Origin: Cylindrospermopsis raciborskii Cr2010
GTDB lineage: Bacteria > Cyanobacteriota > Cyanobacteriia > Cyanobacteriales > Nostocaceae
Assembly (NCBI RefSeq): GCF_003367075.2
Contig: NZ_CP065936.1
Span: 3,330,001 to 3,362,000 of the forward strand
Direction: 5' to 3'
DNA: 32,000 nucleotides
A model generated the notes under the pieces. The model saw only the letters and a list, made by a program, of their open reading frames with translations. It was not told the origin of the DNA and searched no databases. A program made the position numbers and the translations under genes. Position 1 is the stretch's first letter; each line of letters begins with the position of its first letter. Shown piece after piece: positions 4,088 to 31,230 of the stretch.

Positions 4088-4190
4088 GATTTGAATCTCT
4101 TAGTTTTTTTTGTGAGAACATTACTTTTATACTGTTTATTCTGGGATTAATGGTCACATCAGGATTTTTATCCCTAGGGTCTTAAGTTAA

Positions 4191-4298
4191 GTAAGTGGGT
4201 GGAATTAAATATAAGATGAACGTAGGTTGGGTTGAAGTGTGAAACCCAACACCCGCCATCGCCAACCCGTCCTACAAATAATTGTGCCTCCCTACTTA
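4191..4298 (+). mobile_element. MITE-like dispersed repeat, copy A (108 bp)
   Basis: The sequence gtaagtgggtggaattaaatataagatgaacgtagg-ttgggttgaagtgtgaaacccaac-...-cctacaaataattgtgcctccctactta is near-identical at both ends to 31126-31230. It matches 15379-15479 and 19492-19570 in reverse complement. Termini are imperfect inverted repeats (TAAGTGGGTGG / CCTCCCTACTTA). It lies between the gatA stop and the RodZ-like gene start. Confidence 0.85.
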
Positions 4299-6654: not shown

Positions 6655-6949
6655 AGTGAACCAGTGTATAGTATATAAATAGTTGGCATGAGGCGTGGGC
6701 AAGACCTTAAGCGGATGGTAAGCAATCGTAAGACTACTTAGGTAGCAAGTTTCTAACTAAAAGTTCAAGGTCAAGCCTCTAGTCAGATGTTTATAAGCCG
6801 TTAGAACGTAATATGGTCAAGTTATACTAAGTTATATAAGTTTAGATAGCTTTATCCACAAACAAACAAGCGGCAGCTGTTAGTCCAGTCAAATTGCCTA
6901 ATCGAGTGTTAAGATATAAAATTTAAAATTACTAGAAAGTAAGAAGGTT

Positions 6950-9004
6950 GTGGAGAAGGGGACGCTGGTTGAATTTAGGGTTCAAGGCGATCGCCGACTG
7001 GGAGTGGTAGATCGTCCAGACGGTAAGACTCGTTGGTTTGTGGTGGATGAAAGGGGTCAATCCCACAGCCTGGCACCCCGACAAATAACCTATATCATTA
7101 GTAACGGAGAGGGTTATAAGTCAACACAGATTCCCAGGTTTTTGGAGCAGGTTGAACCGTACTTAGATCCATCTAGTCTAGAGGTAGCCTGGGAATTGTT
7201 GGTAGCTGAGGGAGAAAGTGTCACCCCCAGTCAAATGGCAAATCTACTGTTTTCTGAGACCTTACCATACCAGTGTTATGCCGCCCATTGCTTACTATCG
7301 GATGACAAACTATTTTTCAAGCAAAAGGGAGAAGTTTATGAACCGCGTAGTGCTTCCCAGGTAGCAGAAAGAAAACACCAGATAGAAGTAGAAACCCAAA
7401 AAGCTCAAGGACAACAGGAATTTTTACTCCGAGTAGAACGGGCACTCAAAGGTGACACAGTAGAATGGCAAAAGTCTGACCGTCAACGTTTAGATGCCCT
7501 GGAAAAATATGCTACTTTAGTAGCCGATATTATACGTATGGGGGTAAATTCGGAATCTTTGGTGCGTAACTATCCACCTCCAGGTTCCGTATTAGAAACT
7601 ATGAATATGCTGGGACGTTCTGCAACTCCCCCAGCAGCTTTGCAATTACTGGTCGACCTAGGGTGGTGGAGTCCCCATGAAAACCTATTCCTGCGTCGTT
7701 CCTCAATTCCCATTCAGTTCCCTAGCAAAATATTAGAAGTGGCGCAAGAAATTTTGGATTCCCCACCAGCGGATTTAGATGTTAACCGGTTAGACCTCAA
7801 GCATCTTAAAGTCTACACTATTGATGATGAAAGCACTACAGAAATAGATGATGGTTTAAGTTGTGAATTGCTGGAGGATGGAAGACAACGGGTCTGGATA
7901 CATATTGCTGATCCCACCCGGTGGTTAATACCAGAAGACGAGCTAGATCTAGAGGCCAGGAGACGGGGTAGTACGGTTTACCTACCCACAGGAATGATCC
8001 CCATGTTTCCAGAAGTGTTGGCCACAGGTCCCATGAGTCTGATACAGGGAAGGCTTTGTTGTTCCCTCAGCTTCAGCGTAATTCTAGATGATAGTGGTGG
8101 GGTTGCAGAGTATAGTATTCATCCCTGCTTAATTAAACCTACCTATCGCCTGACCTACGAAGATGTAGATGAAATGCTAGATTTGGCAGTGCAAGCAGAA
8201 CCAGAAATTCAAGCGATCGCCGGTTTAGCACAGAAAAGGAAAACCTGGAGGAACAACCAGGGAGCAATCAGTATTACTATGCCAGAAGCGATGATCAAAG
8301 TCAAAAATGATGAGATCAGCATAGACATATTGGATGAGTCCCCATCTCGACAATTAGTGGCGGAAATGATGATTTTAGCGGGAGAAGTAGCAGCACGTTA
8401 TGCTAAAAGCCATAATATTCCCCTACCCTTTCGTGGTCAACCCCAACCGGAACTACCACCGGAAGAGGAATTACTGCAACTCCCTCCAGGGTTTGTGAGA
8501 TTTTGCGCTCTACGTCGATGTATGCCAAAAAGCGAGATGAGCACAACCCCCCTACGTCATGCAGGTTTAGGACTAGACACTTATACTCAGGCTACTTCCC
8601 CTATTCGTCGTTACAGCGACTTACTCACCCACTTTCAACTCAAAGCCCATTTAAGGGGTGAAGAACCACCTTTTTCTGCTGAACAAATCAGAGAGGTGAT
8701 GATGACTGTGAGCAATACCACCCAAGAATTAACCATGGTAGAACGGCAAACCAACAGATACTACGCCTTAGAATACCTACGTCGTCATCTAGAACAAGTA
8801 TGGGAGGTGATAGTTTTGATGTGGTTAAGGGAAGATAGTAATCTGGCATTGATTTTATTTGAGGATCTAGGTTTACAACTACCAATGATGTTTAAGCGCT
8901 CTGTAAAATTAGGTGAAAGGGTATTAGTCAAGGTAGCTCTTGCAGACCCGCAAAAAGATATCATCCAGTTTCAAGAAATAGTGTATCAAGACGTTGTAAA
9001 TTAA
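6950..9004 (+). CDS. RNase II/R-family 3'-5' exoribonuclease (RNB domain plus C-terminal S1-like domain)
   Basis: GTG start preceded by AAGAAGG. RNB motifs present: YTIDDESTTEIDDGLS, VYLPTGMIPMFPE and HAGLGLDTYTQATSPIRRYSDLLTHFQL. C-terminal S1-like segment GERVLVKVALADPQKDIIQFQEI. Confidence 0.88.
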   Translation: MEKGTLVEFRVQGDRRLGVVDRPDGKTRWFVVDERGQSHSLAPRQITYIISNGEGYKSTQIPRFLEQVEPYLDPSSLEVAWELLVAEGESVTPSQMANLLFSETLPYQCYAAHCLLSDDKLFFKQKGEVYEPRSASQVAERKHQIEVETQKAQGQQEFLLRVERALKGDTVEWQKSDRQRLDALEKYATLVADIIRMGVNSESLVRNYPPPGSVLETMNMLGRSATPPAALQLLVDLGWWSPHENLFLRRSSIPIQFPSKILEVAQEILDSPPADLDVNRLDLKHLKVYTIDDESTTEIDDGLSCELLEDGRQRVWIHIADPTRWLIPEDELDLEARRRGSTVYLPTGMIPMFPEVLATGPMSLIQGRLCCSLSFSVILDDSGGVAEYSIHPCLIKPTYRLTYEDVDEMLDLAVQAEPEIQAIAGLAQKRKTWRNNQGAISITMPEAMIKVKNDEISIDILDESPSRQLVAEMMILAGEVAARYAKSHNIPLPFRGQPQPELPPEEELLQLPPGFVRFCALRRCMPKSEMSTTPLRHAGLGLDTYTQATSPIRRYSDLLTHFQLKAHLRGEEPPFSAEQIREVMMTVSNTTQELTMVERQTNRYYALEYLRRHLEQVWEVIVLMWLREDSNLALILFEDLGLQLPMMFKRSVKLGERVLVKVALADPQKDIIQFQEIVYQDVVN

Positions 9005-9150
9005 GTCTTGTCCATACTATTACGTATAATCCAAGTAGAGGAGATGCAAATTTGATTGATTAGCCCTAGAAAATCTGACGATGGATATTTTGGGTTAGTA
9101 GGTTGTAAAATAGCCCTAAGTTTTTGTCACACAACCGTACAATCACTGAT

Positions 9151-9882
9151 ATGACCTATTGTCTGAGAATAAGTGACCTACCAGAAAATGAGCGTCCGAG
9201 GGAAAGACTAATTACCCATGGGGCGAAGGTTTTAGCTACTGCGGAACTGATTGCCATTCTACTAGGAACAGGACAAGGTCCTGGTAAACTATCCGCCGTA
9301 GGTTTGGGTCAACACATACTACAAGAACTGGGAAAAGATCAAGGGGATCCCCTAGCTGCTTTGCGGGATGCTACCCCTGCTCAGTTGACTGAAATTCACG
9401 GTGTGGGATCTGCAAAGGCCACATCGATTCTAGCTGCGGTGGAACTAGGAAAAAGAGTTTTTCTATCTCGTCCTGCGGAGGGAGCGATTATTGACAGTCC
9501 CATAGCAGCTGCGGCTACCCTGAGTCAAGACTTAATGTGGCAAAGTCAAGAAAAATTTGCAGTTTTACTATTAGACGTGAAAAATCGGTTTTTAGGAACG
9601 AAAATAATTACCATTGGTACTGCAACTGAAACCTTAGCGTCTCCCCGGGACATTTTTCGAGAGGTAATTCGACACGGTGCAACACGTATGATCATTGCCC
9701 ATAATCATCCTTCGGGTAATTTAGAGCCTAGCCAAGCAGATATAGACTTGACCAGACAATTGCTATCAGGCGCACAGCTGTTAAATATTCCCATATTAGA
9801 CCATCTGATATTGGGTAATGGCAATCATCAAAGTTTGCGAGAGATTACTAGTCTTTGGGATGATTTCCCCCAGGAGAATTAG
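9151..9882 (+). CDS. radC: RadC-family JAB/MPN domain protein
   Basis: N-terminal [10 protein letters not shown], an HhH-like [24 protein letters not shown], and the JAB motif [21 protein letters not shown]. The ORF is open from TTG 9124, but ATG 9151 ([20 protein letters not shown]) fits the family N-terminus. Confidence 0.9.
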
Positions 9883-9964
9883 TGGGTCTTTAGGATATGA
9901 TTATGTCATCCCTGGCGTGGATTTATCTTCCAGCTAGGTGAAATCAATTTATGTACTTATTGTA

Positions 9965-10705
9965 ATGGAAGTAATTCAGCTTAACCAAGTTTCCCTGTGG
10001 AGAAGAACACAAGAAGAGTTTTCCTACGATTTAAAAAGAACCCTACTTTCCATTGTGGAAGGTAAATATCGTAAACCCGTGAAAAAATTAGTTTTAGATA
10101 ATATAAATTTAGTTGTAAAACAAGGGGAGAAAATTGGAATTATTGGTGCTAATGGTTCTGGGAAATCAACACTTTTAAAAATCATTTGTGGCATTTTGCG
10201 ACCCACCCAGGGCAAGGTACGTATCAATGGCAAAATAGCACCTTTAATCGAATTAGGCGCGGGTTTTGATCCTGATATTTCCGTTATGGATAATATTGTA
10301 CTTTACGGAGTATTATTAGGATTTTCTAGATCGGAGATGAAAGCAAGAGCATATTCAATTTTAGAATTTGCCGAATTGCAAGATTATGCTTTAGTTCCCG
10401 TTAAAGGATTGTCCTCTGGGATGGTAGCAAGGTTGGGTTTTGCTATTGCTACGGATGTACAACCAGACATTTTAATTTTAGATGAAGTCTTATCTGTGGG
10501 AGATGAAAGATTTAAGCATAAATGTCAACAGCGGATTGAAAGATTTTGGAATGCGGATGCAACAGTTTTAGTGGTCTCCCATGATTTAGAGTTTGTTAAA
10601 CATTCTTGTCAAAGAATAATTTGGTTAGATCATGGACAGATAAAATATATGGGTGATGGACAGCATGCTGTTCAGTCTTATTTAACTGGTACAGGAGGAT
10701 TGTAA
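9965..10705 (+). CDS. ABC transporter ATP-binding protein, polysaccharide/teichoic-acid export type (Wzt/TagH/KpsT-like), NBD only
   Basis: Walker A GANGSGKSTLLK, signature LSSGMVARLGFAIA, Walker B ILILDEVLSVGD, H-loop VVSHD, and the ELGAGFDPD motif typical of Wzt/TagH. ATG 9965 (MEVIQLNQVSLW) is preferred over GTG 9938. No ABC-2 permease gene is adjacent. Confidence 0.85.
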   Translation: MEVIQLNQVSLWRRTQEEFSYDLKRTLLSIVEGKYRKPVKKLVLDNINLVVKQGEKIGIIGANGSGKSTLLKIICGILRPTQGKVRINGKIAPLIELGAGFDPDISVMDNIVLYGVLLGFSRSEMKARAYSILEFAELQDYALVPVKGLSSGMVARLGFAIATDVQPDILILDEVLSVGDERFKHKCQQRIERFWNADATVLVVSHDLEFVKHSCQRIIWLDHGQIKYMGDGQHAVQSYLTGTGGL

Positions 10706-10737
10706 CTCATGGGAAGACCCACGAGTTAGCGAGGAAA

Positions 10738-10974
10738 CTAATTAATCACAATATGTCTTACCAGAATACTCATAACCTCCCCAGGGTTACCAGTTGGCGT
10801 GAGATCACTCCAATCAGTTGCATTGGCATAACCAAGCACGTGTAGATAGTGAATCGTACTAATAACCGCCTTTTTCGAGCCAATCAATAGGTGTTTTAGC
10901 GGTTCCCGGTGACCAGCTTGTGAAACCACCCTAGAGTCATCAACATTGCTGATAAAGTTTCTGGTGTGTGCCAT
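10738..10974 (-). CDS. Small conserved hypothetical protein (78 aa)
   Basis: ORF on the opposite strand between the ATPase and the GT genes. The segment LLIGSKKAVISTIHYLHVLGYANATDWSDLTPTGNPGEVMSILVR resembles a multi-copy small-protein family I recall from filamentous cyanobacteria. Function unknown. Confidence 0.45.
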   Translation of the reverse strand: MAHTRNFISNVDDSRVVSQAGHREPLKHLLIGSKKAVISTIHYLHVLGYANATDWSDLTPTGNPGEVMSILVRHIVIN

Positions 10975-10999
10975 AATTTATGTGCCTCCATGTTGGGGT

Positions 11000-11044
11000 G
11001 TAAGGTGATCAGAGGTTTCCGCCAAGAAATAGAGATCACCTTAC
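11000..11044. repeat. Perfect 11-bp inverted repeat GTAAGGTGATC / GATCACCTTAC with a 23-nt spacer, followed by TTTTTCC
   Basis: Read directly: arms at 11000-11010 and 11034-11044. On the + strand it looks like an intrinsic terminator. On the - strand it lies just upstream of the 78-aa ORF start. Confidence 0.5.
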
Positions 11045-11172
11045 TTTTTCCTAATTATAAAACTATTTGAACAGACATGCAAGTAGTTTATAGAAAATAA
11101 TTAATAATTTTTGTAAAATCTTTCGACTTGTCAAGCATAAATGAAAAATGCCAGAATCTGGCACTCCCTAAT

Positions 11173-11312
11173 GGGAGATCGCCAAGCACCCCGGTTAGGT
11201 AGAGAAAACTCAATATATCCCGTGGGTTTGTTGGGTTTCGTTCCTCAACCCAACCTACAATGACCTGCGATAAGACTGCGCTTTTAGATCGGGAATTGAT
11301 TCCCGGTCTCCC
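11173..11312. repeat. Second MITE-like/composite repeat carrying the same hairpin module
   Basis: 11230-11258 (gttgggtttcgttcctcaacccaacctac) is identical over 29 nt to 15421-15449 of MITE copy B, but the flanks differ. The outer ends GGGAGATCG (11173-11181) and CGGTCTCCC (11304-11312) are 8/9 inverted repeats. An internal hairpin GATCGGGAA-ttga-TTCCCGGTC lies at 11287-11308. Confidence 0.4.
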
Positions 11313-11520
11313 CCACAGACTTAATTGGGGAATTAATGTACTTCAACACTATGATGGAAAACTAGAGTCAAAAATGGTTAAAGATTACGATTAATACATA
11401 ATATTGACTTTTTAATTAAGTGTTTATTCGGTTTGCATCTTGATTATTGATTTGCCATAACAGTACAAACAGGATATTCACAAGGATGTGTTTATCCTTT
11501 AGATAAAGAACAAAAAATTT

Positions 11521-13434
11521 ATGGTTAATCAACTGGAATTGCCCTCTCTCCATCAGATTCCTCGCCAGAAAATAGAGAACCATCATCTGCAAAATATTAT
11601 TTTTCCCACAACTACTATTTGTACAGTTGAAGAATTATTTTTTAGGAATAATGACCAGGTAATCTTTAACTATGAGCATCAAATCCTGGAGTTAAAACCG
11701 GGTAATCTTGTTAGTTTAGACACATATTTTAATGGTTTTTATGTGGATAATTGGCGAGAATATACTAGTTTAGTAGATATAAATGTCAGTTTAAAGTTTC
11801 AAGGTACTGGCAAAGTGAGTCTTTATAACATTGACAGATTAGGTGAAACTAAAACCCTCTTGGCACAAAAAATAATCAAGAGTAACACAACCAAGGAATT
11901 GGAGGAAATCCTAGTTTTTAAAAATCTGGATATATCATCCTATACGGGAATGATATATTTAGAAATCCTGGCTCTAGAAATGTGTCAGATTAGTCACGGT
12001 CACTTTTCAACTTCCGAGCAACCCAAGCAACAGGTAAAAATAGCACTGGTAATTTGTACTTACAAAAGAGAAAAGTATATTCAGAAAAATATTCAATTAT
12101 TAGGATCACATCTCTCAGAAAATCCCCAATATAGAAATCAATTAGAAGTATGGATCATTGATAATGGTAGAACATTAAATATAGAAGATATTAAAGATAT
12201 CAATAATAACCTAAAAATTCACCTTATACCTAATAAAAATGCAGGAGGGAGTGGTGGTTTTGCCAGAGGAATGCTGGAAGTAATTGAAAATTCAAATCAG
12301 TTCTCTCATATTCTGCTGATGGATGATGACATTCTCTTTCACCCAGAAATTTTTAACAGAGTCTGGGTTTTCTTGAGTTTATGCCATGGAAAATATGCAA
12401 AAGAAATTTGTCTTGGCAGTAGTATGTTAAGACTAGATAAGAAATATATACAGCATGAAAAAGGAGCATACTGGAACAGAAGTCAAGGTTTTGTACCCGT
12501 CAAGCAGAATATGGACTTAAGGAAATTAAAAGATACCTTGTTCAATGAAGTAGATGAGTATATTGATTACAGTGGTTGGTGGTTTTTTTGTTTTCCGGTT
12601 CACATAATCAAAGAGCATGGACTACCATATCCATTTTTTATCAAGGTAGACGATGTAGAATTTTGTCGAAGAATTGGTAAAAAAATCATCATTTTAAATG
12701 GTATAAGTGTATGGCATGAACCATTTGAAAATAAAAAAAATCCATCTATTGAATATTACTATTTCCGAAATAGTATGATTTACCATAGTCTATATTTTGA
12801 ACAAGAATTTAGTAGAATAAAAGCAATCAAATGGTTTTTAAAACCCTTGTTAAGGGAACTATTTTGCTATAGATATGAAACAGCAAAAAGTATTATCAAA
12901 GCCACCGTAGATTTCCTCAAAGGTCCCCATGCTTTAGTTGCTAACCATCCCGAAGAAAAGCATAAACAAGTCTGTCAATCTGAGGAAAAAACCAGTAGAA
13001 ATCCAGACCTATGCTTTGTGTATAAAAAATATTGGGAAAGTGTAGAAAAGACCGAAAGTAAATTACATAGGTTTTGGAGACTTTTAACCCTTAATGGTCA
13101 TCTTTTACCCGATTGGTTATTTTTTGAGGATGACACATTGAGCGATAAGGGATATAGTATTGTGCCATCTAATAATGGTAGACCCTTAAATACCTTTAGG
13201 GTGAAAAAAGTTTTATATTACAACTTAACAACACAGGAAGGATTCATAGTTAAATTTTGCCGGAGAGAATTTTTTAGAATTTTTATATCGGCTTTGTGGT
13301 TGGCATTATTAATGATGATTCAACTAGAAAGAACTAAACGGCAATATATAGACTCATTTACTAAATTTACCAGTCCTAATTTCTGGGAAACTTATCTAGA
13401 AATAGCCCCACAGTCATCTAAATATGGAGAATAA
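11521..13434 (+). CDS. GlfT2-like galactofuranosyltransferase (N-terminal beta-rich domain, GT-A catalytic domain, C-terminal helical domain)
   Basis: 637 aa. GT-A start KIALVICTYKREKYI, then NKNAGGSGGFARGM, DDD motif HILLMDDDILFHPE (D268-270, nt 12322-12330), FFIKVDDVEFCRR (D377/D378) and VWHEPF (H399). From memory, length and motif spacing closely parallel mycobacterial GlfT2 (DDD ~256-258, DD ~371-372, His ~396, 637 aa). glf lies immediately downstream. Confidence 0.7.
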   Translation: MVNQLELPSLHQIPRQKIENHHLQNIIFPTTTICTVEELFFRNNDQVIFNYEHQILELKPGNLVSLDTYFNGFYVDNWREYTSLVDINVSLKFQGTGKVSLYNIDRLGETKTLLAQKIIKSNTTKELEEILVFKNLDISSYTGMIYLEILALEMCQISHGHFSTSEQPKQQVKIALVICTYKREKYIQKNIQLLGSHLSENPQYRNQLEVWIIDNGRTLNIEDIKDINNNLKIHLIPNKNAGGSGGFARGMLEVIENSNQFSHILLMDDDILFHPEIFNRVWVFLSLCHGKYAKEICLGSSMLRLDKKYIQHEKGAYWNRSQGFVPVKQNMDLRKLKDTLFNEVDEYIDYSGWWFFCFPVHIIKEHGLPYPFFIKVDDVEFCRRIGKKIIILNGISVWHEPFENKKNPSIEYYYFRNSMIYHSLYFEQEFSRIKAIKWFLKPLLRELFCYRYETAKSIIKATVDFLKGPHALVANHPEEKHKQVCQSEEKTSRNPDLCFVYKKYWESVEKTESKLHRFWRLLTLNGHLLPDWLFFEDDTLSDKGYSIVPSNNGRPLNTFRVKKVLYYNLTTQEGFIVKFCRREFFRIFISALWLALLMMIQLERTKRQYIDSFTKFTSPNFWETYLEIAPQSSKYGE

Positions 13435-13437
13435 ATT

Positions 13438-14586
13438 ATGTATGACAGAATGTTTGATTTTCTGATTGTTGGAGCTGGTTTTGCTGGTTGCACTCTAGCA
13501 AATTGTATAGCTACACAGCTGGATCGTAAAGTTTTGGTAATTGATACTCGTCATCATATTGGTGGTAATGCTTTTGATTGTTATGATAATGCGGGGGTAT
13601 TAATTCATAAATATGGAGCGCATATTTTTCATACCAATAGTAAAAAAATCATTGATTACCTTTCCCAATTTACTCAATGGCGAGTTTATCAACATCAAGT
13701 TTTAGCCAGAGTTGATGGTGATTTATATCCAATTCCTATTAACTTAAATACAATCAACAAAATGTATGGTTTAAATCTTAATAATGAAGAAGTTGCAGAT
13801 TTTTATGAACAAATTAAGCAAAAATATGACAGAATTGAAAATTCAGAACAAGCTGTAATCAGTAAGGTCGGAAATGATTTATATGAGAAGTTTTTTAAAA
13901 ACTATACTTATAAACAATGGAATTTATGGCCTCACCAATTAGATGCTTCTGTGTGCGCTCGTATCCCCGTGAGAACAAATAAAGATAACCGTTATTTTGG
14001 CGATAAATATCAGTTAATGCCACTACATGGTTATACAAAAATGTTTGAAAATATGTTGGCACATCCCAATATTAAGATTATGCTCAATACAAGCTTTCAA
14101 GATGTGGAAAAGTGGTTAAAATTTGACCATTTAATTTATACAGGACCAATTGATCAGTTTTTCGATTACAAATTTGGTCAACTTCCCTATCGTTCCTTAC
14201 GCTTTGAATTTGAAACTCACGATGTTGAATATTTTCAACCTGTTGCTGTTGTCAATTATCCCAATGATTATGACTTTACAAGAATAGTAGAATCTAAACA
14301 TATCACGGGACAAAAACACCCGAAAACCACCATTTATTATGAATATCCCCAATCGGAGGGAGACCCATATTATCCCATACCTCGTCCAGAAAATCGTGAT
14401 TTATTTGAACAATATAAAACTGCTGCAGATAAACTGGCATCAGTAACTTTTGTTGGTAGGTTAGCACAGTACCAATATTACAACATGGATCAGGTGGTTG
14501 CTGCTGCTCTCACAGTTTTTGAAAACCGCATTAGTCAACTTTCTTATTATCCTCTTATTACAGGTAAAATCTCTCATGGAAACTAG
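13438..14586 (+). CDS. glf: UDP-galactopyranose mutase
   Basis: FAD fold FDFLIVGAGFAGCTLA, then VLVIDTRHHIGGNAFD, GAHIFHTNSKKIIDYLSQFTQW, a YNMDQVV-containing C-terminus, and ~380 aa length. It starts 3 nt after the preceding stop, and a GGAGAA Shine-Dalgarno sits inside the upstream gene end, suggesting translational coupling. Confidence 0.92.
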   Translation: MYDRMFDFLIVGAGFAGCTLANCIATQLDRKVLVIDTRHHIGGNAFDCYDNAGVLIHKYGAHIFHTNSKKIIDYLSQFTQWRVYQHQVLARVDGDLYPIPINLNTINKMYGLNLNNEEVADFYEQIKQKYDRIENSEQAVISKVGNDLYEKFFKNYTYKQWNLWPHQLDASVCARIPVRTNKDNRYFGDKYQLMPLHGYTKMFENMLAHPNIKIMLNTSFQDVEKWLKFDHLIYTGPIDQFFDYKFGQLPYRSLRFEFETHDVEYFQPVAVVNYPNDYDFTRIVESKHITGQKHPKTTIYYEYPQSEGDPYYPIPRPENRDLFEQYKTAADKLASVTFVGRLAQYQYYNMDQVVAAALTVFENRISQLSYYPLITGKISHGN

Positions 14587-15346
14587 AATTAACGCTCAAA
14601 TACAAAGCCAGAATTTATGGGATGGTGCCACTCTCATAGATATCATGCGTAAACAAGCAATTGAATATGATTTTAATAAGGGTAGAATGGTTATTAATTC
14701 TATTTTATTAGCTGATAAAACAGAAGTAAACAACCGAGGTTTTTTATTAGATAAAATCAGAGATTATGGTTGTGCATACCAAGGATGGAATCTTTACGCT
14801 CCTTATCAACAATATCTTAATGCTTCTGATTATGGACCATTACAAATTCCTACAGAATTAGCTGACTTTTTAATTTTCTCTATTCAAAAACAACCCCAAT
14901 CATTTTTAGAAGTGGGAGTGATGTATGGAGGATTCTCTGTTTTATGCTGCGCTGTGTTGTCTAAATTCAACAAAGATTTTCATTATATCTGTGTTGATAT
15001 AGAGGATAACTTTAGAGATTGGCAATATTTTTCATCTATTTTACCCCTAGAAAAAGCTATTCCTGCTACATCTGCTGACTTTATTGGCAAGAAATTTGAT
15101 CTGGTTTATATCGATGGAGACCATTCCTATCATGGCATGAAAAGAGATTTTATGAATGTGGGACGTCATGCTAAATTCTGTGCTTTTCATGATATTAATG
15201 CTACGGAATATGATTACCTAGATGGTGGTACAAGACGATGTTGGAATGATCTTAAATTATCCTATTGTCACTCAGCTTCTATTTGGGAAATTAGTCATAT
15301 TGCTGAAGAATGGATGGGTATTGGAATTATAGATTTTAATACATGA
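14576..15346 (+). CDS. Class I SAM-dependent methyltransferase-like protein (CmcI/Methyltransf_24-like)
   Basis: Motif I-like FLEVGVMYGGFSVL and the acidic DLVYIDGDHSYHGMKRDF motif typical of this subfamily. ATG 14576 (METRINAQ) overlaps the glf stop by 11 nt. The longer ORF from 14498 would overlap glf by 89 nt and encodes only a hydrophobic junk-like leader. Confidence 0.55.
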   Translation: METRINAQIQSQNLWDGATLIDIMRKQAIEYDFNKGRMVINSILLADKTEVNNRGFLLDKIRDYGCAYQGWNLYAPYQQYLNASDYGPLQIPTELADFLIFSIQKQPQSFLEVGVMYGGFSVLCCAVLSKFNKDFHYICVDIEDNFRDWQYFSSILPLEKAIPATSADFIGKKFDLVYIDGDHSYHGMKRDFMNVGRHAKFCAFHDINATEYDYLDGGTRRCWNDLKLSYCHSASIWEISHIAEEWMGIGIIDFNT

Positions 15347-15378
15347 TCAAGAGCAAATTTGTAATTTATTCCGTTATT

Positions 15379-15479
15379 TAAGTAGGGAGGCACAATTATT
15401 TGTAGGATCCCCATGAGGGCGTTGGGTTTCGTTCCTCAACCCAACCTACGTTCATGTTTAATTCCACTCACCCACTTAT
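15379..15479 (-). mobile_element. MITE-like dispersed repeat, copy B (inverted orientation)
   Basis: taagtagggaggcacaattatttgtagg...gttgggtttcgttcctcaacccaacctacgttcatgtttaattccactcacccactta is the reverse complement of the A/D consensus, with a different hairpin loop. It sits in the 191-bp spacer between the methyltransferase and the next GT gene. Confidence 0.85.
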
Positions 15480-15537
15480 CCTATTTATCTTTACATAGTT
15501 TGGTCTTTTAACGCCAACTTACCTTAGTCTATGATTT

Positions 15538-16929
15538 ATGAAAATCACTAAAGTCGCTGCTATTATTGTCACATGGAACAAACGTAAGGATGTTTGTGCG
15601 GTAATTAAAGACATAGAAAGTCTAGATTTACAGAACATATCTTTGGATATTTTTGTGGTTGATAATGCTTCACAGGATGGAACCCAGAATTATCTTGAAC
15701 TCCATTATCCACATATCAAAGTTTTACAAACCGGAAAAAACCTTGGTGGTTCTGGTGGTTTTTCTCAAGGGATGAATTTTGTCAGTAACCTTGATTATCA
15801 ATACATTTGGTTACTTGATAATGATGTACGGTTAGATCCTTATGCTTTAGTCCCTTTAGTGGAAACTTTAAACAGATATGCGGAAGTGGGGTTGGTAGGA
15901 TCTCAAATTAGGAAGTTAGATAATCCAGATATTATTCAAGAAATAGGGAGTTATATTCACGAACCCAAAGCTCACTTGCAAACCTATTTAGGTAATTCAC
16001 CGGTTCAATCTCCAGCAGAAATTTTAAACAGTAAGAATTATCTCACTGTAGATATTTGTGCTGCTGCTTCACTATTATTCAGAAGGGAAATTATTCACCA
16101 AATAGGCGTTTTTGAAAACTATTTTTTACACTTTGATGACGTAGAATGGTGTTTGAGAGCTAAACAATTTGGTTGGGTGATTGCTGCTCATCCCGCATCG
16201 ATTATTTGGCACTGTTCACCGGATTTTAAACAGCGTCCTTGGATTAGTTATTATGATGAACGCAATCTCCTCTATTGTTGGCACAAACACAGACCAGATC
16301 TCTTATTAAGACGCTTGAGAATATTATTTCCTAAGTTGGTTTATTATTCCTTAACTGGACGCCATTTTTGGGCATTAATTCATTTGCAAGCTATGACGGA
16401 CTTCCTGAACCTCATTCAAGGTGAAATGCCCAATTTGTTATCAAGTTTTACTTTAGGAGAAATTTTACCTCATAATGGACAGGTATTAATACAAGATTCT
16501 ATCTATCAACATATTTGCGATTTTTTAGATGTTAAGCAAGAGCAAAAATTTACTCTCTGGTATCCACCTAACAAATATAATAAGTTATGGGCTTGGGCTT
16601 ATTTATCATTTATATCTTGTTTTTCTAAACCCGTAGACTTAGCAATTGTCAGCTACTGGAAACCAAATTTTTATTATCTTCATCTGTCTAGAAAGCTTTA
16701 TTTCTTTACTGGTAACGGTTATGTTATGTCCCAAATTAGTTTCACCCAAATTATATTGGATAGTCTCGGAGTAGTGTATGGGTTTTTAAAAATATACCTA
16801 CGGATGACTCACTTGCTTAAAAAATCTGACAAATCTTTTAATAAGCTGGTTATCTCAAATCTACTTCACCCCTTTTGGGTAAATAAGGTAAAAAAATTGT
16901 TGTTGATAATTTCAACTATTTATAGTTAA
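15538..16929 (+). CDS. GT2 glycosyltransferase with GlfT-like catalytic motifs and a hydrophobic C-terminal region
   Basis: KVAAIIVTWNKRKDV, VVDNASQDGT, GKNLGGSGGFSQGM, IWLLDNDVRLDP, FLHFDDVEWCLRAKQFG and IIWH. This is the same NxGGSGGF ... DDVE(F/W)C.R ... WH pattern as the 637-aa protein, but without its N-terminal domain. The C-terminal ~130 aa contain hydrophobic helices (LWAWAYLSFISCF, IILDSLGVVYGFLKIYL, LLLIISTIY). Confidence 0.75.
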   Translation: MKITKVAAIIVTWNKRKDVCAVIKDIESLDLQNISLDIFVVDNASQDGTQNYLELHYPHIKVLQTGKNLGGSGGFSQGMNFVSNLDYQYIWLLDNDVRLDPYALVPLVETLNRYAEVGLVGSQIRKLDNPDIIQEIGSYIHEPKAHLQTYLGNSPVQSPAEILNSKNYLTVDICAAASLLFRREIIHQIGVFENYFLHFDDVEWCLRAKQFGWVIAAHPASIIWHCSPDFKQRPWISYYDERNLLYCWHKHRPDLLLRRLRILFPKLVYYSLTGRHFWALIHLQAMTDFLNLIQGEMPNLLSSFTLGEILPHNGQVLIQDSIYQHICDFLDVKQEQKFTLWYPPNKYNKLWAWAYLSFISCFSKPVDLAIVSYWKPNFYYLHLSRKLYFFTGNGYVMSQISFTQIILDSLGVVYGFLKIYLRMTHLLKKSDKSFNKLVISNLLHPFWVNKVKKLLLIISTIYS

Positions 16930-16948
16930 TCTGTCATGAGGGATAATT

Positions 16949-17905
16949 ATGTCAAGTCCAGAATTAGTATCTATAGTTATTTGCACTCTCAACCGTTGTT
17001 GTTCTTTGGAAAAAACTCTCAAGTCGTTAAATCAGATTAATTATCGATATTTTGAAGTTATTATTATAGACTCCTCTGATGATGAAAGTACCCGAAAAAT
17101 GGTGGATGACCTGAAAATGGATTTGGATTTTCCCATTCAAATATTCCGCTCCTCTGTCAAAAACATCAGCGTCTCTAGAAATATGGGCACACAAAAATCA
17201 TCTGGCAAAATAGTTGCTTTTATTGATGATGACGCAATTCCCCAAAGAGATTGGTTAGATAAGTTACTTACTACATATACTTTAAAAGGCGATAAATGTG
17301 CTGGAGTCGGTGGGAGTGTAAAAGATATGACTAAAGCCGATCTTCCTTGGCAATATTATCAGGGTATTACTAATGTTATGAGTCATACTATTCCCATTCG
17401 TTTAGGAAAGGTGCCCAACCATAATCAATCCCAGGGTTTTTGGTACAATGGAATGATGGGAACAAATTCATCCTACCGTAAAGAACTGCTGGAAAAAATC
17501 AACGGTTATGATGAGTTTTTTGACTATTTTTTGGATGAAACTGATGTTTGCTTACGATTAATTCAAGCTGGTTATGAAATTCACTACTGCGATACAATTG
17601 TACATCATTATCCTCAACCCAGCCATAACCGTTATGATCAAAAGCATCTGACCTGTTGGTACTCATTGGCAAAAAATACGACTTATTTCGCTTTAAAGCA
17701 TGGCTATAATAAAATGCCATCCTGGATATTTATATTACGTTTGAGTTCATTGTTAATTTATCGCTGTTTACTCAGAATATTACGCTTAAAATTCAGTCAC
17801 AATCTGAATAATCACATTCTATTAGATTATATTAAGCAGGCAATTAAAGGTATATATCTGGGGTGGAGTTATGGTGTTAATACGTCTGTTCACTCCTCGA
17901 ATTAA
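16949..17905 (+). CDS. Glycosyltransferase family 2
   Basis: VSIVICTLNRCCSLEKTLKSL, FEVIIIDSSDDEST and IVAFIDDDAIPQRDWL (DxD), with a GAGGG Shine-Dalgarno 6 nt upstream of the ATG. Confidence 0.85.
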   Translation: MSSPELVSIVICTLNRCCSLEKTLKSLNQINYRYFEVIIIDSSDDESTRKMVDDLKMDLDFPIQIFRSSVKNISVSRNMGTQKSSGKIVAFIDDDAIPQRDWLDKLLTTYTLKGDKCAGVGGSVKDMTKADLPWQYYQGITNVMSHTIPIRLGKVPNHNQSQGFWYNGMMGTNSSYRKELLEKINGYDEFFDYFLDETDVCLRLIQAGYEIHYCDTIVHHYPQPSHNRYDQKHLTCWYSLAKNTTYFALKHGYNKMPSWIFILRLSSLLIYRCLLRILRLKFSHNLNNHILLDYIKQAIKGIYLGWSYGVNTSVHSSN

Positions 17906-19452
17906 CCACGAATGACAGTAATACACCTCCCAGCAGGACTAACTACTTCTTGAGTAGTTGTGCGATCGCCTATAGGAGGTAGGTTAGGACGGCGATCGAA
18001 AATGACTAGCCATCCAGTTTCCAGGTTTAGTCCAGCAAGGTACTTATCCAATTGTTTCAGTCCTTGACTGAGAGGGTCTTTTCGTTTTGGATGCCAAACT
18101 TTCAGTTCTATCCCCATTACCACTTTACCATAACGTAAACAAATATCCATTCTTCCCGAACCAATAGCATATTCCCGTTCTAACCTACCACCACCATTAA
18201 CCACCCGGTGTAAAAAAGCCATTAGCACTAAATGGGGAGCAATTTCTGGATAGGGGGTGCTTTTCAGTAAGGGTTCTCCGTGTTGTCGCCAAAATTCCAA
18301 AAATACTTGTAATAATTTATCAGGCAATAATTCGCCTTGATCACTAAGCCAGTTGGGTTCTATCACCCCTATGGAAGAACGAGTAGTATATGTTAGCACT
18401 CTGGGAATAACTTCCCGATAGATGGGATTGGCAATTTCTAACCCCTGATCATTTTTATCCTGACAAAGTCCTAAATCCAGAACGTAGCGAATATCATCTG
18501 ATGGAACATCTGGTAATTCCTCCCCAGCTAAAATTGGCTCTATAATAGTTCTGACTCTGGGTTCCCGCAGTCTTTCCGCAAGACTATCCAAATGGGTGTC
18601 TTGTCGCTGAATCAGAATTTCCTTGGCTTCTTCTATAACTTCAACGGTAATGGGTTGGTTAATGTCCTTCACCACATCTTCCGTAGCTTGACGAGCTAAA
18701 GCATTAACCAACCATGGTTGTCCATCGGTTAAATAAAAGGAATATTCCAGAGCTTCTGGTGTGAAAACCTGTCCTGTAGCTGTTGTATGTTGTTCATAAA
18801 GAGTCTTTACATCTGTAAAAGTGAAGTTACCCATAGTTAAAGACTCCACCTTAATATTAAAAGGACTTGCCGTATTCAGGCGATCGCCCCCACCGGATTT
18901 AACTTTATAGTCCCGTATATCTCGCATACCAATTAAACCTAAAGAATGGGGAAATCCCTGAGGGCGGTTAGGATAACCTGAGCGCAGTTGACGGAGGATG
19001 GAAATTAAGGTTTCATCGCTTAGTGCATCGATTTCATCTAAAAAAAACACTAAGGGACGAGGAGAGGTTACTGCCCAATTACTTAAGAATATGCTTAATT
19101 GTGAGCTGTTATCAACAGCAGGCCATCGGGTGGGTTGTAGTTCTGATGGTAGACGAAAACAAATGGATTGTTGCCATTCGGTTAAAATAGCTACCTGCGC
19201 TGCTACAGGATCATGAGGGAACGCAGCACCTACTTCAGCAGAAAGCATAACAGCAGTATATTTTCCACCTTCGGTTAATTCTTGGGCTAAGGCCAACATA
19301 GCAGTAGTTTTACCCACCTGACGAGGAGCATGAATAACAAAGTAATTTTGTCTATCAATTAGAGTACGCACTTTAGGAAGGCGTTCCGTAGGAGGTAACA
19401 TGTAGTGAATATCTGATTTACATGGACCTGCTGTGTTGAACCATTTATTCAT
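17902..19452 (-). CDS. AAA-type ATPase fused to a C-terminal PD-(D/E)XK nuclease-like domain
   Basis: N-terminus FNTAGPCKSDIHYMLPPTERL, Walker A HAPRQVGKTTAML and Walker B LVFFLDEIDAL. The C-terminus has GRMDICLRYGKVVMGIELKVW (D...E.K) and WLVIFDRR. Its stop overlaps the convergent GT2 stop by 4 nt. Confidence 0.7.
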   Translation of the reverse strand: MNKWFNTAGPCKSDIHYMLPPTERLPKVRTLIDRQNYFVIHAPRQVGKTTAMLALAQELTEGGKYTAVMLSAEVGAAFPHDPVAAQVAILTEWQQSICFRLPSELQPTRWPAVDNSSQLSIFLSNWAVTSPRPLVFFLDEIDALSDETLISILRQLRSGYPNRPQGFPHSLGLIGMRDIRDYKVKSGGGDRLNTASPFNIKVESLTMGNFTFTDVKTLYEQHTTATGQVFTPEALEYSFYLTDGQPWLVNALARQATEDVVKDINQPITVEVIEEAKEILIQRQDTHLDSLAERLREPRVRTIIEPILAGEELPDVPSDDIRYVLDLGLCQDKNDQGLEIANPIYREVIPRVLTYTTRSSIGVIEPNWLSDQGELLPDKLLQVFLEFWRQHGEPLLKSTPYPEIAPHLVLMAFLHRVVNGGGRLEREYAIGSGRMDICLRYGKVVMGIELKVWHPKRKDPLSQGLKQLDKYLAGLNLETGWLVIFDRRPNLPPIGDRTTTQEVVSPAGRCITVIRG

Positions 19453-19491
19453 AGTTGATTTTTATATATCTTTGACATTCGTGCGATCGCA

Positions 19492-19570
19492 TAAGTAGGG
19501 AGGCACAATTACTTGTAGGATGGGTTGAACTATGAAACCTGTCCTACGTTCATCTTATATTTAATTCCAC
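19492..19570 (-). mobile_element. MITE-like dispersed repeat, copy C (truncated, divergent core)
   Basis: taagtagggaggcacaattacttgtagg...cctacgttcatcttatatttaattccac shares both sub-terminal blocks with copies A, B and D. It lacks the CCACCCACTTA(C) terminus and has a different central hairpin (gggttgaactatgaaacc). A HIP1 site lies immediately to its left at 19483-19490. Confidence 0.75.
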
Positions 19571-19578
19571 TGATTTGC

Positions 19579-19761
19579 ACAGCCAAAAAGATAATGTGTT
19601 TAGCACCAGAAACCCGCAAAGCCAAAATAGTCAAAGAGGTATTATATGGGGATATTTCTTCCAAATGTCCAGCTTCAATCTTACGTCGTCAACCACAGGC
19701 CAGCTTGTTTTTAGATCTCAACTCTGCTAGAGAAATCTCTCTTGAATCCTCCAACACCTAA
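19579..19761 (+). pseudogene. 3' remnant (~60 codons) of a NagB/Pgl-family gene (glucosamine-6-P deaminase / 6-phosphogluconolactonase)
   Basis: TAKKIMCLAPETRKAKIVKEVLYGDISSKCPASILRRQPQASLFLDLNSAREI matches the C-terminal pattern of this family (..ilLa.Ge.Ka.av...l.G.....PAS.L..hp...l.lD..aA..l). No N-terminal ~180 aa are present. The upstream part of the listed ORF (from 19525) is MITE sequence. Confidence 0.55.
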
Positions 19762-20450
19762 TTATCAAGCTGAGTAAGTTTACCATCTTCCATTTGAATA
19801 ATGCGATCGGCAATATCCAAAATACGATTATCATGGGTGACAATTAAAATGGCACAGTTTTGTTCTCTGGCTAATTCCTGCATGATATTGACCACATCTC
19901 GACCGGATTTACTATCTAAAGCTGCTGTAGGTTCGTCTGCTAAAACTAATTTAGGGTGACTAACTAAAGCACGTGCAATAGCAACTCTTTGTTTTTGTCC
20001 TCCCGACAGATCCTCAGGATAATAATTAATCCTGTTACCTAATTTTACGGACTCAAGGATGGATTGGGATTGCATTCTAGCTTGACCTTGAGGAATATGG
20101 GTCTGTAATTCCAAAGACATTTGTACATTTTCTCTAGCTGTTAAAAAGTCTAACAAATTATGTCCTTGAAAAATATAACCTATTTGACGACGTACTTGGA
20201 CTAACTTCCCGTTTCTAACTCCACATAATTCCTCTCCCAGAAATTTTAAACTTCCTTCTTGAACAGAACGTAAACCACCAATCAAGGTTAGTAGGGTGGT
20301 CTTTCCCGATCCGGAAGGACCTGTCATAATCACAATTTCACCAGCGTCAATTCTTAAATTAATGTCAAATAATATCTGGTTCTTTAATTTGGGTTTACCA
20401 AAATACTGATTTAAGCCCTCAATTTCTATGATGGGGTTTGAACTTTTCAT
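19758..20450 (-). CDS. devA: DevA-family ABC exporter ATP-binding protein
   Basis: Walker A GPSGSGKTTLLTLIGG, signature LSGGQKQRVAIARAL, Walker B LVLADEPTAALD and H-loop IVTHD. It is the last gene of a devB-devC-devA-ordered operon. ATG 20450 has GGAGG 4 nt upstream, so the listed start at 20483 is less likely. Confidence 0.85.
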   Translation of the reverse strand: MKSSNPIIEIEGLNQYFGKPKLKNQILFDINLRIDAGEIVIMTGPSGSGKTTLLTLIGGLRSVQEGSLKFLGEELCGVRNGKLVQVRRQIGYIFQGHNLLDFLTARENVQMSLELQTHIPQGQARMQSQSILESVKLGNRINYYPEDLSGGQKQRVAIARALVSHPKLVLADEPTAALDSKSGRDVVNIMQELAREQNCAILIVTHDNRILDIADRIIQMEDGKLTQLDN

Positions 20451-20504
20451 ATTTCCTCCGACTTGGGAAACAACTTTAGACAACTGTGAGAGATGTTAAT
20501 GTTT

Positions 20505-21677
20505 TTAAAAAATATCAGCCGGATCTAACTTTCGTAGTTTGTTAGTGGAGAAAAAACCTGAAGTTAAACACATAACCACAGCAGAGATAAATACAATAAA
20601 TGCTTTATCACCATCCATGACAATGGGTAATTGGGTAGCATTTTTGGCTATGTCGTAAAGTCCTAAAGAGATAGCAAATCCAGGAATGTATCCCAAACCT
20701 GCTAAAATTAGAGCCTGTTGAAAAACAACTCTGAGGAGATATTTGTTTTTAAATCCCATGGCTTTGAGGGTAGCAAATTCAATCAAATGGCTGGATATAT
20801 TACTATAAAGAATTTGGTAAACAACTATGACACCAACCACAAAACCCATAATTACCATCAAGTTAAATACAAAACCGATAGGTGTTCTTAAAGTCCAATA
20901 ATTTTTTTCAAATTCGATGAAGTCATGACGGTTCATAACCATCACATCTTCGGGTAAGTTAGCTGATAGTTCACCTAATACCCTTTGGGAATCAGCACCA
21001 GGTCTTAGATGAATTAACCCTATATCTATTTGATTGGCATTGCGCTCTCGAAAAACTCGCATGAAAGTAGAATCGCTGACAATTAAATTCCCATCAACCC
21101 CAAAAGATGGACCAAGACTAAATAAACCACTTACCCTAACTTTATAACCTATTAACCCCAGATAACTGAATATCTCCATGCTGACAGGTTTATTTTGGCT
21201 ATAGTGTTGGGCAATTGGACCAAACTCAGGACGAGCAGCACGGTCAAAAAATACCTGATCTGGTATTTGGAGTAATTTAAAATCTTGTTGTATTTCTGGC
21301 AACTTAAATATTGATTTAACCGGATCAAATCCCAGCACATAAATGGGATATTTCCGCCCAGTTACCGGATTTTTTAACTTAGCAAACTGTACATATAGGG
21401 GATCAACTGACTCTACATCCTTAAAACCCAGGGTTTGATATAAACGACTGCGAGGAAAACTTTGGTTAGAAGTTAAGGATTTATATTGAGCACTAATCAA
21501 AAATAAATCTCCTTCGATATTCTTATGCAATTGTGTGGCACTAGCATACAGTGCATCTTGAAACCCAATTTGCATAAACATTAAAACAGCAACAAAGGAA
21601 ATTCCTGCTAGAGCTACAAGAAACCGAACTTTTTGTTTAGCCAGTTGTAGCCAAGCCAGAGGAATATTTAGGATCAT
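20505..21677 (-). CDS. devC: DevC-family ABC exporter permease (FtsX/MacB-like)
   Basis: 390 aa. N-terminal TM LAWLQLAKQKVRFLVALAGISFVAVLMFMQIGF, then a large periplasmic domain and a C-terminal FtsX-like 3-TM bundle (ATLKAMGFKNKYLLRVVFQQALILAGLGYIPG). AAGAGG lies upstream of the ATG. Confidence 0.85.
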   Translation of the reverse strand: MILNIPLAWLQLAKQKVRFLVALAGISFVAVLMFMQIGFQDALYASATQLHKNIEGDLFLISAQYKSLTSNQSFPRSRLYQTLGFKDVESVDPLYVQFAKLKNPVTGRKYPIYVLGFDPVKSIFKLPEIQQDFKLLQIPDQVFFDRAARPEFGPIAQHYSQNKPVSMEIFSYLGLIGYKVRVSGLFSLGPSFGVDGNLIVSDSTFMRVFRERNANQIDIGLIHLRPGADSQRVLGELSANLPEDVMVMNRHDFIEFEKNYWTLRTPIGFVFNLMVIMGFVVGVIVVYQILYSNISSHLIEFATLKAMGFKNKYLLRVVFQQALILAGLGYIPGFAISLGLYDIAKNATQLPIVMDGDKAFIVFISAVVMCLTSGFFSTNKLRKLDPADIF

Positions 21678-31125: not shown

Positions 31126-31230
31126 GTAAGTGGGTGGGTGGAATTAAATATAAGATGAACGTAGGTTGGGTTGAAGTATGAAACCCAACACCACGGGTTA
31201 CGCTACCAAATAATTGTGCCTCCCTACTTA
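31126..31230 (+). mobile_element. MITE-like dispersed repeat, copy D
   Basis: gtaagtgggtgggtggaattaaatataagatgaacgtaggttgggttgaagtatgaaacccaac...ccaaataattgtgcctccctactta. It sits in the 168-bp spacer between the PKS stop and the next PKS-cluster ORF. Confidence 0.85.

Follow-up and report, generated by a model that had tools for sequence, protein, structure and literature searches.

A predicted locus for a galactofuranose-rich surface glycan, with a GlfT2-type glycosyltransferase, in the cyanobacterium Cylindrospermopsis raciborskii

We have analysed a 32-kb stretch of DNA (hereafter the window, to whose coordinates all positions refer) from Cylindrospermopsis (Raphidiopsis) raciborskii, in which six open reading frames (ORFs) on the + strand between 9965 and 17905 encode an ATPase, a 637-aa glycosyltransferase (GT), Glf, a methyltransferase, a 463-aa GT and a GT2. 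In our reading, to which we give a probability of roughly 0.7, this locus provides the dedicated enzymes of an ATP-binding cassette (ABC) transporter-dependent pathway for a cell-surface glycan rich in galactofuranose (Galf), most likely an O-antigen-like, polyprenyl-diphosphate-linked polysaccharide. The pathway is proposed by analogy, because the parts list matches those of the Salmonella T1 and Kingella systems. The six genes, with the evidence used for each, are as follows:

9965–10705, + strand: wzt, predicted nucleotide-binding subunit of an ABC transporter for polysaccharide export, 246 aa (Pfam ABC_tran, synteny)
11521–13434, + strand: GlfT2 orthologue, 637 aa, predicted Galf polymerase (Pfam, phmmer, AlphaFold2 (AF2)/Foldseek, invariant motifs)
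13438–14586, + strand: glf, UDP-galactopyranose mutase, yielding the UDP-Galf donor (TIGR00031, Pfam GLF, PDB 3hdq)
14576–15346, + strand: class I S-adenosylmethionine (SAM)-dependent methyltransferase, 256 aa (Pfam Methyltransf_24)
15538–16929, + strand: second GT with the GlfT2 fold, 463 aa, designated GT463 (phmmer, AF2/Foldseek, invariant motifs)
16949–17905, + strand: classical GT2, 318 aa, designated GT2-318 (Pfam Glycos_transf_2, 79 bits)

By sequence, fold and catalytic residues, the 637-aa protein is a true GlfT2 orthologue and not a generic GT2. It was placed in the GlfT2 family because Pfam Glft2_N (PF17994) scored 36.7 bits over residues 24–158, above its gathering cut-off of 26.1, because phmmer matched residues 60–472 to Mycobacterium tuberculosis GlfT2 (PDB 4fix) with an E-value of 6.9e-31, and because the fold is matched over the full length. 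The Glft2_N domain is also seen in the AF2 model, and Pfam additionally detected the GT2 core; GlfT2_domain3 (PF19320) scored 20.2 bits, under its cut-off of 27, and is precomputed for most close homologues. All phmmer matches to solved structures were GlfT2 proteins, among them that of Nocardia (9dtp, E-value 3.6e-28). The AF2 model, built on an alignment of homologues (predicted local distance difference test (pLDDT) 90.5, predicted template modelling score (pTM) 0.88), retrieved 4fix, 9dtp and 9nj1 in Foldseek with E-values of 1e-41 and template modelling (TM) scores of 0.75–0.80 over approx. 645 columns, the runner-up being K4 chondroitin polymerase with a TM score of 0.27. By structure, the four-part GlfT2 fold is present, including the helical domain 3 and the C-terminal domain. 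Across 38 homologues, D268-D269-D270, D377-D378 and W398-H399 do not vary; D268–D270, D377-D378 and H399 align to D256–258, D371/372 and H396 of the M. tuberculosis enzyme (the chain numbering of 4fix includes a 20-residue tag), and both motifs, DXD and DD, have functional importance in GlfT2 and PamC (PMC12269835). A preliminary description of this DNA had called the protein GlfT2-like, and both profiles and structure bear it out, with matches that go beyond a generic GT2 core. The protein is predicted to be a processive UDP-Galf:galactofuranoside galactofuranosyltransferase; supportive context for such polymerisation comes from the adjacent glf, which starts 3 nt past the stop codon of the polymerase gene and has a GGAG within the last codons of that gene. 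Polymerase homologues with 44–56% identity occur in Nodularia, Gloeotrichia, Leptolyngbya, Oculatellaceae and Coleofasciculaceae, and others with approx. 35% identity in Clostridia; the family overall comprises 1,501 representatives of 50%-identity clusters at E-values of 1e-30 or better. Automated pipelines already name some homologues galactofuranosyl transferases.

The block wzt-glfT2-glf-methyltransferase-GT463-GT2 is kept, with all ORFs intact and 62–91% amino acid identity, in six other Nostocales genomes, namely those of Sphaerospermopsis kisseleviana, Anabaena cylindrica UHCC 0172, Anabaena spp. WFMT and UHCC 0451, Trichormus NMC-1 and one metagenome-assembled genome. In Nostoc indistinguendum the cluster is present in a rearranged form. 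We took intact ORFs in six genomes at this level of identity as enough to show constraint.

The product of glf is, by homology at equivalog level, a bona fide UDP-galactopyranose mutase, in line with what had been proposed for it. TIGR00031 scored 398 bits against an equivalog cut-off of 304, Pfam GLF (PF03275) matched with an E-value of 1.9e-79, along with NAD_binding_8, and the mutase structure 3hdq was matched over residues 4–363 with an E-value of 2.5e-163. Identities with the orthologues of the relatives are 89–91%.

GT463 was likewise described earlier as GlfT2-related, and its fold agrees: the GT-A domain and the helical and C-terminal domains are present, and the N-terminal beta-sandwich is absent. 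GlfT2 is its sole strong relative among solved structures (phmmer against 4fix, E-value 3.7e-13) and also the best Foldseek match of its AF2 model (pLDDT 90.2; E-value 2e-22, TMq 0.66, approx. 488 columns), the next GT-A folds following at 5e-14. Invariant among the homologues of GT463 are N68-x-G70-G71-x-G73-G74-F75, D94/D96, D200-D201 and H225. The motifs that both GlfT2-type GTs of the cluster had been said to share (N-x-G-G-S-G-G-F/Y, DDVE..C/L.R and WH) indeed align to GlfT2 and are invariant among homologues. We infer that GT463 is a priming or adaptor Galf transferase. Two other labels were tried and rejected: with the GlfT1 model NF050113 the score was 38 bits (cut-off 330) and the match spanned only the N-terminal 124 profile positions, the closest solved fold being that of GlfT2, and the WbbL rhamnosyltransferase model, with 60 bits, stayed far under its cut-off. 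GT463 may still act in a GlfT1-like manner.

In other cyanobacteria GT463 and GT2-318 occur as a single fused protein, which indicates that the two act together. Microcoleus P0272 (759 aa) is such a fusion, with residues 1–406 being 58% identical to GT463 and residues 443–753 being 61% identical to GT2-318, in many other cyanobacteria the two likewise make up one protein of approx. 755 aa, and many further cyanobacterial matches are approx. 750–780 aa long. Gene fusion is direct evidence for this functional partnership; the sugars that the two proteins would transfer are presumed.

The methyltransferase matched Pfam Methyltransf_24 with 39.5 bits (cut-off 26.3) and, weakly and below the cut-off, RMNT_CmcI (21.5 bits); there was no match in NCBIfam and no useful one in PDB, either by single sequence or by a seven-sequence profile. 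Identity of the protein among the six syntenic clusters is 74–81%, long parts of the sequence being invariant, and its conserved co-location suggests O-methylation of the glycan. In Escherichia coli O8/O9a, a WbdD-type terminator (a methyltransferase, or a kinase plus methyltransferase, with a coiled-coil ruler) pairs with a Wzt that carries a carbohydrate-binding domain. As a label for the methyltransferase of the window, WbdD-type chain terminator fails: the protein has a single Methyltransf_24 domain in 256 aa, and Wzt here is without the carbohydrate-binding extension.

In the wzt product, Pfam ABC_tran matched residues 53–184 of the 255-aa ORF translation (86 bits), and approx. 70 residues remain after the match, with no C-terminal carbohydrate-binding extension. 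Among NCBIfam models, galactan Wzt/RfbE (NF050108) gave 196 bits against a cut-off of 400 and TagH 183–186 bits; all models remained below their equivalog cut-offs (320–538). The protein is 77–85% identical to Wzt encoded beside the same cluster in the six Nostocales genomes. In the relatives a gene for a 270-aa ABC-2 permease (wzm) lies immediately upstream of wzt, and this wzm-wzt context supports the prediction of a polysaccharide-export ATPase of the Wzt/TagH type. The earlier proposal of a Galf-containing polymer made by an ABC-dependent route stands as the best reading, but the transporter is incomplete at the locus, where wzm is missing: wzt follows radC after 82 bp, and a tblastn search of the 32-kb window with the Sphaerospermopsis Wzm gave chance-level matches only.

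A second wzm-wzt pair is located downstream of the cluster in four of the six relatives (L001, L003, L004 and L005), and L006 has only the downstream pair within the stretch examined. The sole C. raciborskii Wzm among the matches listed is P0435 from strain CS-508, encoded at a locus separate from the Galf cluster. This second glycan locus (L012, MBQX01000111, 10001–15137) has the order miaA-wzm-GT4-Methyltransf_21-GT4-Methyltransf_21, and no wzt was found in the 4.8 kb that follow wzm, up to the contig end. The CS-508 wzm is 83–85% identical to the downstream wzm of the relatives vs 80–81% to the upstream copy, and the wzt of the window is 79–85% identical to their upstream wzt vs 77–82% to the downstream one. 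These small but consistent differences suggest that one member of each ancestral wzm/wzt pair survived, and a CS-508-type wzm could pair with the wzt of the window.

Two observations on the surroundings of the transporter genes in S. kisseleviana (L001) may be added. Three paralogous ORFs of 234–276 aa (6853–7557, 16438–17268 and 18527–19315), each opening with MALTAQEIEALMPDC, flank both wzm-wzt pairs and the Galf cluster, one of them splitting wzm2 from wzt2; these paralogues are candidate substrates for rearrangements between genomes. Just past the second wzm-wzt pair (20241–21386), a 381-aa ORF has, by eye, a methyltransferase-like N-terminal part and a coiled-coil-looking C-terminal region, which recalls chain-length regulators of the WbdD type; it has no counterpart in the window and probably belongs to the neighbouring glycan cluster.

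If the locus works as we propose, Glf (by its equivalog-level homology) would convert UDP-galactopyranose (UDP-Galp) to UDP-Galf, and an initiating phosphoglycosyltransferase encoded outside the window would load the first sugar onto the lipid carrier. GT2-318 and GT463 would then jointly make a short, Galf-ended adaptor, their partnership being shown by the fusion and the sugars being presumed. The GlfT2 orthologue would extend this primer processively, with one active site, to a Galf chain (both acceptor and order of steps are putative), and the SAM-dependent methyltransferase might O-methylate the glycan at a presumed site. Finally, the lipid-linked chain would be exported by Wzm/Wzt, with Wzt supplied by the cluster and Wzm by the second glycan locus, provided that such a split transporter is competent; the final attachment is likewise presumed.

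Among characterised systems, the Salmonella enterica T1 locus (STM0719–STM0726; Kelly et al. 2024, PMC11294581) is a Gram-negative, wzm/wzt-dependent pathway with glf, in which a GlfT2 orthologue with a single active site (STM0724, a Galf polymerase in vitro) acts on a short adaptor from separate GTs; it is also strain-variable, with pseudogenised alleles, and its authors regard GlfT2-like enzymes as widespread. The likeness lies in the parts list, and there are differences. The T1 adaptor enzymes are WbbN and WbbO, whereas here a truncated GlfT2-fold GT and a GT2, fused in other cyanobacteria, take this place; an invertible promoter and the ribofuranose polymerase STM0726 belong to T1 and were not seen here; and the cyanobacterial cluster adds a methyltransferase and has an unlinked wzm. 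The pamABCDE genes of Kingella kingae (PMC12269835) encode Glf (PamB) and GlfT2-like GT2 polymerases (PamC1/PamC2) for a Galf homopolymer on lipopolysaccharide (LPS), but the priming enzyme PamA has a GT111 fold that is not seen in the cyanobacterial cluster. Because the PamC1/PamC2 alleles give different linkages, the linkage made by the cyanobacterial cluster cannot be predicted.

With the galactan pathway of mycobacterial arabinogalactan (WbbL, GlfT1, GlfT2, Glf, Wzm/Wzt) the locus shares the glf-glfT2 adjacency, the domain architecture, length (637 aa) and DDD/DD/H catalytic residues of the polymerase, three GT2-type transferases in series and a predicted ABC exporter of the Wzt/RfbE type. 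However, the 637-aa GT has only approx. 20% identity to M. tuberculosis GlfT2 (Foldseek), GT463 fails the GlfT1 model, and the cyanobacterial cluster is without arabinosyltransferases and has the methyltransferase in addition. For a Gram-negative phototroph such as this organism, an arabinogalactan core is out of the question. The epithet ‘mycobacterial-style’, given to the locus in the preliminary description, is not distinctive, as GlfT2 orthologues together with glf and wzm/wzt have already been characterised in Salmonella (PMC11294581) and Kingella (PMC12269835). The D-galactan I locus of Klebsiella pneumoniae O1/O2 (wzm-wzt-wbbM-glf-wbbN-wbbO), whose O antigen contains Galf, is similar in having glf by wzm/wzt and a short Wzt without the carbohydrate-binding domain, but its polymerase WbbM is a dual-module GT111/GT8 enzyme, and not of the GlfT2 type, which makes a Galf-Galp disaccharide repeat. 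Another instance of the same pathway logic, known from genes alone, is found in the alphaproteobacterium Gluconobacter sp. Gdi (L008, 5600–12819), where a wzt-like ATPase gene accompanies glf (39% identity) and two tandem GTs with the GlfT2 core (29% identity).

For cyanobacteria, a search of the literature (cyanobacteria, Cylindrospermopsis or heterocyst combined with galactofuranose, GlfT2 or mutase) retrieved no characterised Galf-polymer or GlfT2 pathway, in agreement with what had been stated before. Routes to O antigen and exopolysaccharide (EPS) that depend on Wzm/Wzt are already accepted in cyanobacteria (PMC4390846), and a glf-containing ‘galactose/polysaccharide’ cluster was noted in 2010 in N. 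punctiforme and ‘Nostoc azollae’ (PMC2900214). Galf itself has been reported in one EPS of Nostoc sphaeroides as a branch residue of a heteropolysaccharide (PMC12266578).

This last record is consistent with an alternative that we regard as unlikely but worth weighing before the others, in which the product is a composite or heteropolymer: GT463 and GT2-318 would polymerise a disaccharide repeat, with a second Galf domain, or a cap, contributed by the GlfT2 orthologue. Such a glycan would resemble the two-domain products of Salmonella T1, where two polysaccharide components come from one locus (PMC11294581), or of Klebsiella O1, in which one glycan caps another, and the fusion of GT463 and GT2-318 in many cyanobacteria is an architecture typical of dual-module polymerases. 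On the other hand, the extra GTs of the characterised GlfT2-type systems make an adaptor and not a polymer, and the cluster contains no gene for the synthesis of a second nucleotide sugar.

The proposed Galf-glycan cluster is part of a strain-variable block, which, together with other features in and beside it, is located as follows:

9895–19563, no strand: strain-variable block of wzt, Galf cluster and AAA gene between radC and devA (strain comparison)
10706–11520, no strand: wzt/polymerase spacer, 815 bp, non-coding (no ORF longer than 78 aa)
15379–15478, − strand: copy of a dispersed hairpin repeat of approx. 100 bp in the 191-bp spacer between the methyltransferase gene and GT463 (aligns with the other copies)
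17902–19452, − strand: P-loop/AAA-like ATPase, 516 aa, ‘CyrO-like’ (weak AAA Pfam matches only)

In Raphidiopsis brookii D9 and C. raciborskii CENA303, positions 9895–19563 (9.7 kb) are absent, with approx. 1.1 kb in their place. In R. curvata NIES-932, positions 10285–14239 and 14993–17899 are deleted and fragments of glf and the methyltransferase gene remain, the flanks having 92–99% nucleotide identity. Some C. raciborskii strains have a truncated polymerase (forms of 336 and 546 aa); truncated variants occur in G7 and DSH. These erosions and losses, together with the window's want of wzm, would also fit a decaying remnant that has lost its own wzm, exports no polymer and is heading towards Raphidiopsis-like deletions. 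We hold this to be quite improbable, as all six ORFs of the window are intact, full-length products with at least 90% identity are on record in many C. raciborskii strains, and the wzm of CS-508, with no adjacent wzt, could pair with the wzt of the window.

On the right, the cluster adjoins devBCA and the gene for a 2287-aa HglE-like polyketide synthase (PKS), an island whose presence was noted before and in view of which a role in heterocyst, akinete or sheath polysaccharide had been called conceivable. That the cluster makes such a developmental envelope polysaccharide is the least probable of the alternatives and finds no support: all close relatives with the whole cluster are heterocystous Nostocales, but the surroundings of the cluster in the seven cyanobacterial relatives (L001–L007) never include devBCA, the PKS gene, radC, RNase II or the AAA gene, polymerase and fused-GT homologues are found in cyanobacteria without heterocysts (Leptolyngbya, Microcoleus, Oculatellaceae, Coleofasciculaceae and Hydrococcus), and NIES-932, D9 and CENA303 keep devBCA and the PKS gene without the cluster, or after its erosion in the case of R. 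curvata. The adjacency is specific to the C. raciborskii lineage.

Several points weigh against the proposal of an exported Galf-rich glycan. Given that wzm is unlinked to wzt in the window, intact export is something that we infer, and the window contains no gene for an initiating transferase, a ligase or an outer-membrane export component. For GT463, GT2-318 and the methyltransferase, the proposed roles are presumptive and derive from context and fold. Galf has rarely been reported in cyanobacterial glycans, and its presence in C. raciborskii is a prediction. Furthermore, the cluster is dispensable, because some strains have truncated polymerases and some lineages lack it altogether, and it could be inactive in some strains.

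The AAA-like gene is convergent with GT2-318 and overlaps its stop codon by 4 nt. Unlike the cluster, it has normal GC content and sites of the highly iterated palindrome HIP1 (at 17962 and 18880), and in some strains its product is labelled ‘polyketide biosynthesis operon protein CyrO’. It is absent beside the cluster in L001–L007, present in R. curvata with its eroded cluster, and absent in D9 and CENA303; it is part of the strain-variable block and not of the pathway. The gap between this gene and devA is also variable (19452–19758 in the window vs 9168–9882 in L010 and 13024–14230 in L013). In R. curvata, D9 and CENA303 it holds a gene for a 263-aa Glucosamine_iso (6-phosphogluconolactonase-like) protein, mostly without counterpart in the window, and in D9 and CENA303 additionally a 100-aa DUF6881-like gene.

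Copies of the dispersed repeat in the window are located at 4187–4298, 15379–15478 (−), 19485–19570 (−) and 31127–31230, with a central GGTTGGGTT...AACCCAAC hairpin and a conserved CAAATAATTGTGCCTCCCTACTTA end. The copy at 19485–19570 coincides exactly with the right-hand edge of the block missing in D9 and CENA303, and another copy is found in the C. raciborskii wzm locus (L012, 15205–15329). A related hairpin, of the GTTGGGTT...AACCCAAC type, is situated near 11229–11258 inside the wzt/polymerase spacer.

The gene coordinates and junctions given earlier were confirmed by inspection of ORFs and sequence, including the spacing of glf with its Shine-Dalgarno sequence in the preceding gene. The mechanical ORF of the ATPase runs from GTG 9938, whereas the 246-aa product recorded in NCBI starts from the ATG at 9965; similarly, the methyltransferase as annotated in NCBI (256 aa) starts from the ATG at 14576, with an 11-nt overlap with glf. 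GT463 and GT2-318 are 19 nt apart, with a GAGG ahead of the ATG of the latter. The description of the genes as ‘tightly packed’ is apt for these short junctions, but not for the 191-bp gap with the dispersed repeat or for the 815 bp that separate wzt from the polymerase gene. The latter spacer probably holds the predicted promoter of the five-gene block. A 78-aa antisense ORF in it (10738–10974, − strand) matched no Pfam family and was treated as non-coding; the accession numbering of strain CS-505 (EFA68882, EFA68883) suggests that two small annotated genes may separate wzt and the polymerase gene. No Rfam family was found in 9000–20000, and a promoter/terminator scan of 9000–19600 was uninformative (52 promoter-like sites vs approx. 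40 expected by chance) and supports no operon boundaries.

The AT-richness of the cluster and its lack of HIP1, first noted by eye, hold on counting. GC content is 0.335 over 11521–17905 vs 0.396 in the remainder of the window, and the 12 HIP1 sites of the window all lie outside the interval between 8221 and 17961, for which the density elsewhere predicts 5.25 (Poisson P approx. 0.005); the relatives' clusters are likewise low in GC and poor in HIP1. A strain-variable cassette of low GC content and few HIP1 sites is the usual pattern of a surface-antigen locus. It should be noted that the genes of the cluster are already annotated, if generically, because every protein tested has a residue-for-residue identical record in C. 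raciborskii genomes, such as EFA68881 (‘family 2 glycosyl transferase’) or ‘UDP-galactopyranose mutase’.

The finding adds little mechanistic novelty, since its enzyme family, its ABC-dependent logic and its scheme of adaptor plus polymerase are all established in other systems; no cyanobacterial case has been characterised in the literature searched. Galf polymers have been well studied in pathogens, and glf with the GlfT2 orthologue offers a widely conserved genetic handle on cyanobacterial LPS and EPS. Sister strains provide natural knock-outs, the cluster being intact in the window, eroded in R. curvata NIES-932 and absent in R. brookii D9 and CENA303. We tentatively put forward a broader picture, which is possible but which we do not favour over its contrary: an O-methylated galactofuranan, in a sugar form that neither animals nor plants have, might make up a strain-variable, O-antigen-like surface layer in C. 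raciborskii and many other cyanobacteria. This layer would be built by a dedicated cyanobacterial GlfT2 subfamily and primed by a truncated GlfT2 paralogue; in C. raciborskii, a hybrid Wzt/Wzm left from two ancestral pairs and now encoded at two loci would export it. Whether a Cylindrospermopsis/Raphidiopsis strain has the cassette intact, eroded or not at all would then set the susceptibility to phages and grazers in this harmful-bloom species. Resistance to phages and grazers in a toxic bloom-former could plausibly depend on a surface glycan that varies among strains, and such a glycan may serve as a strain marker.

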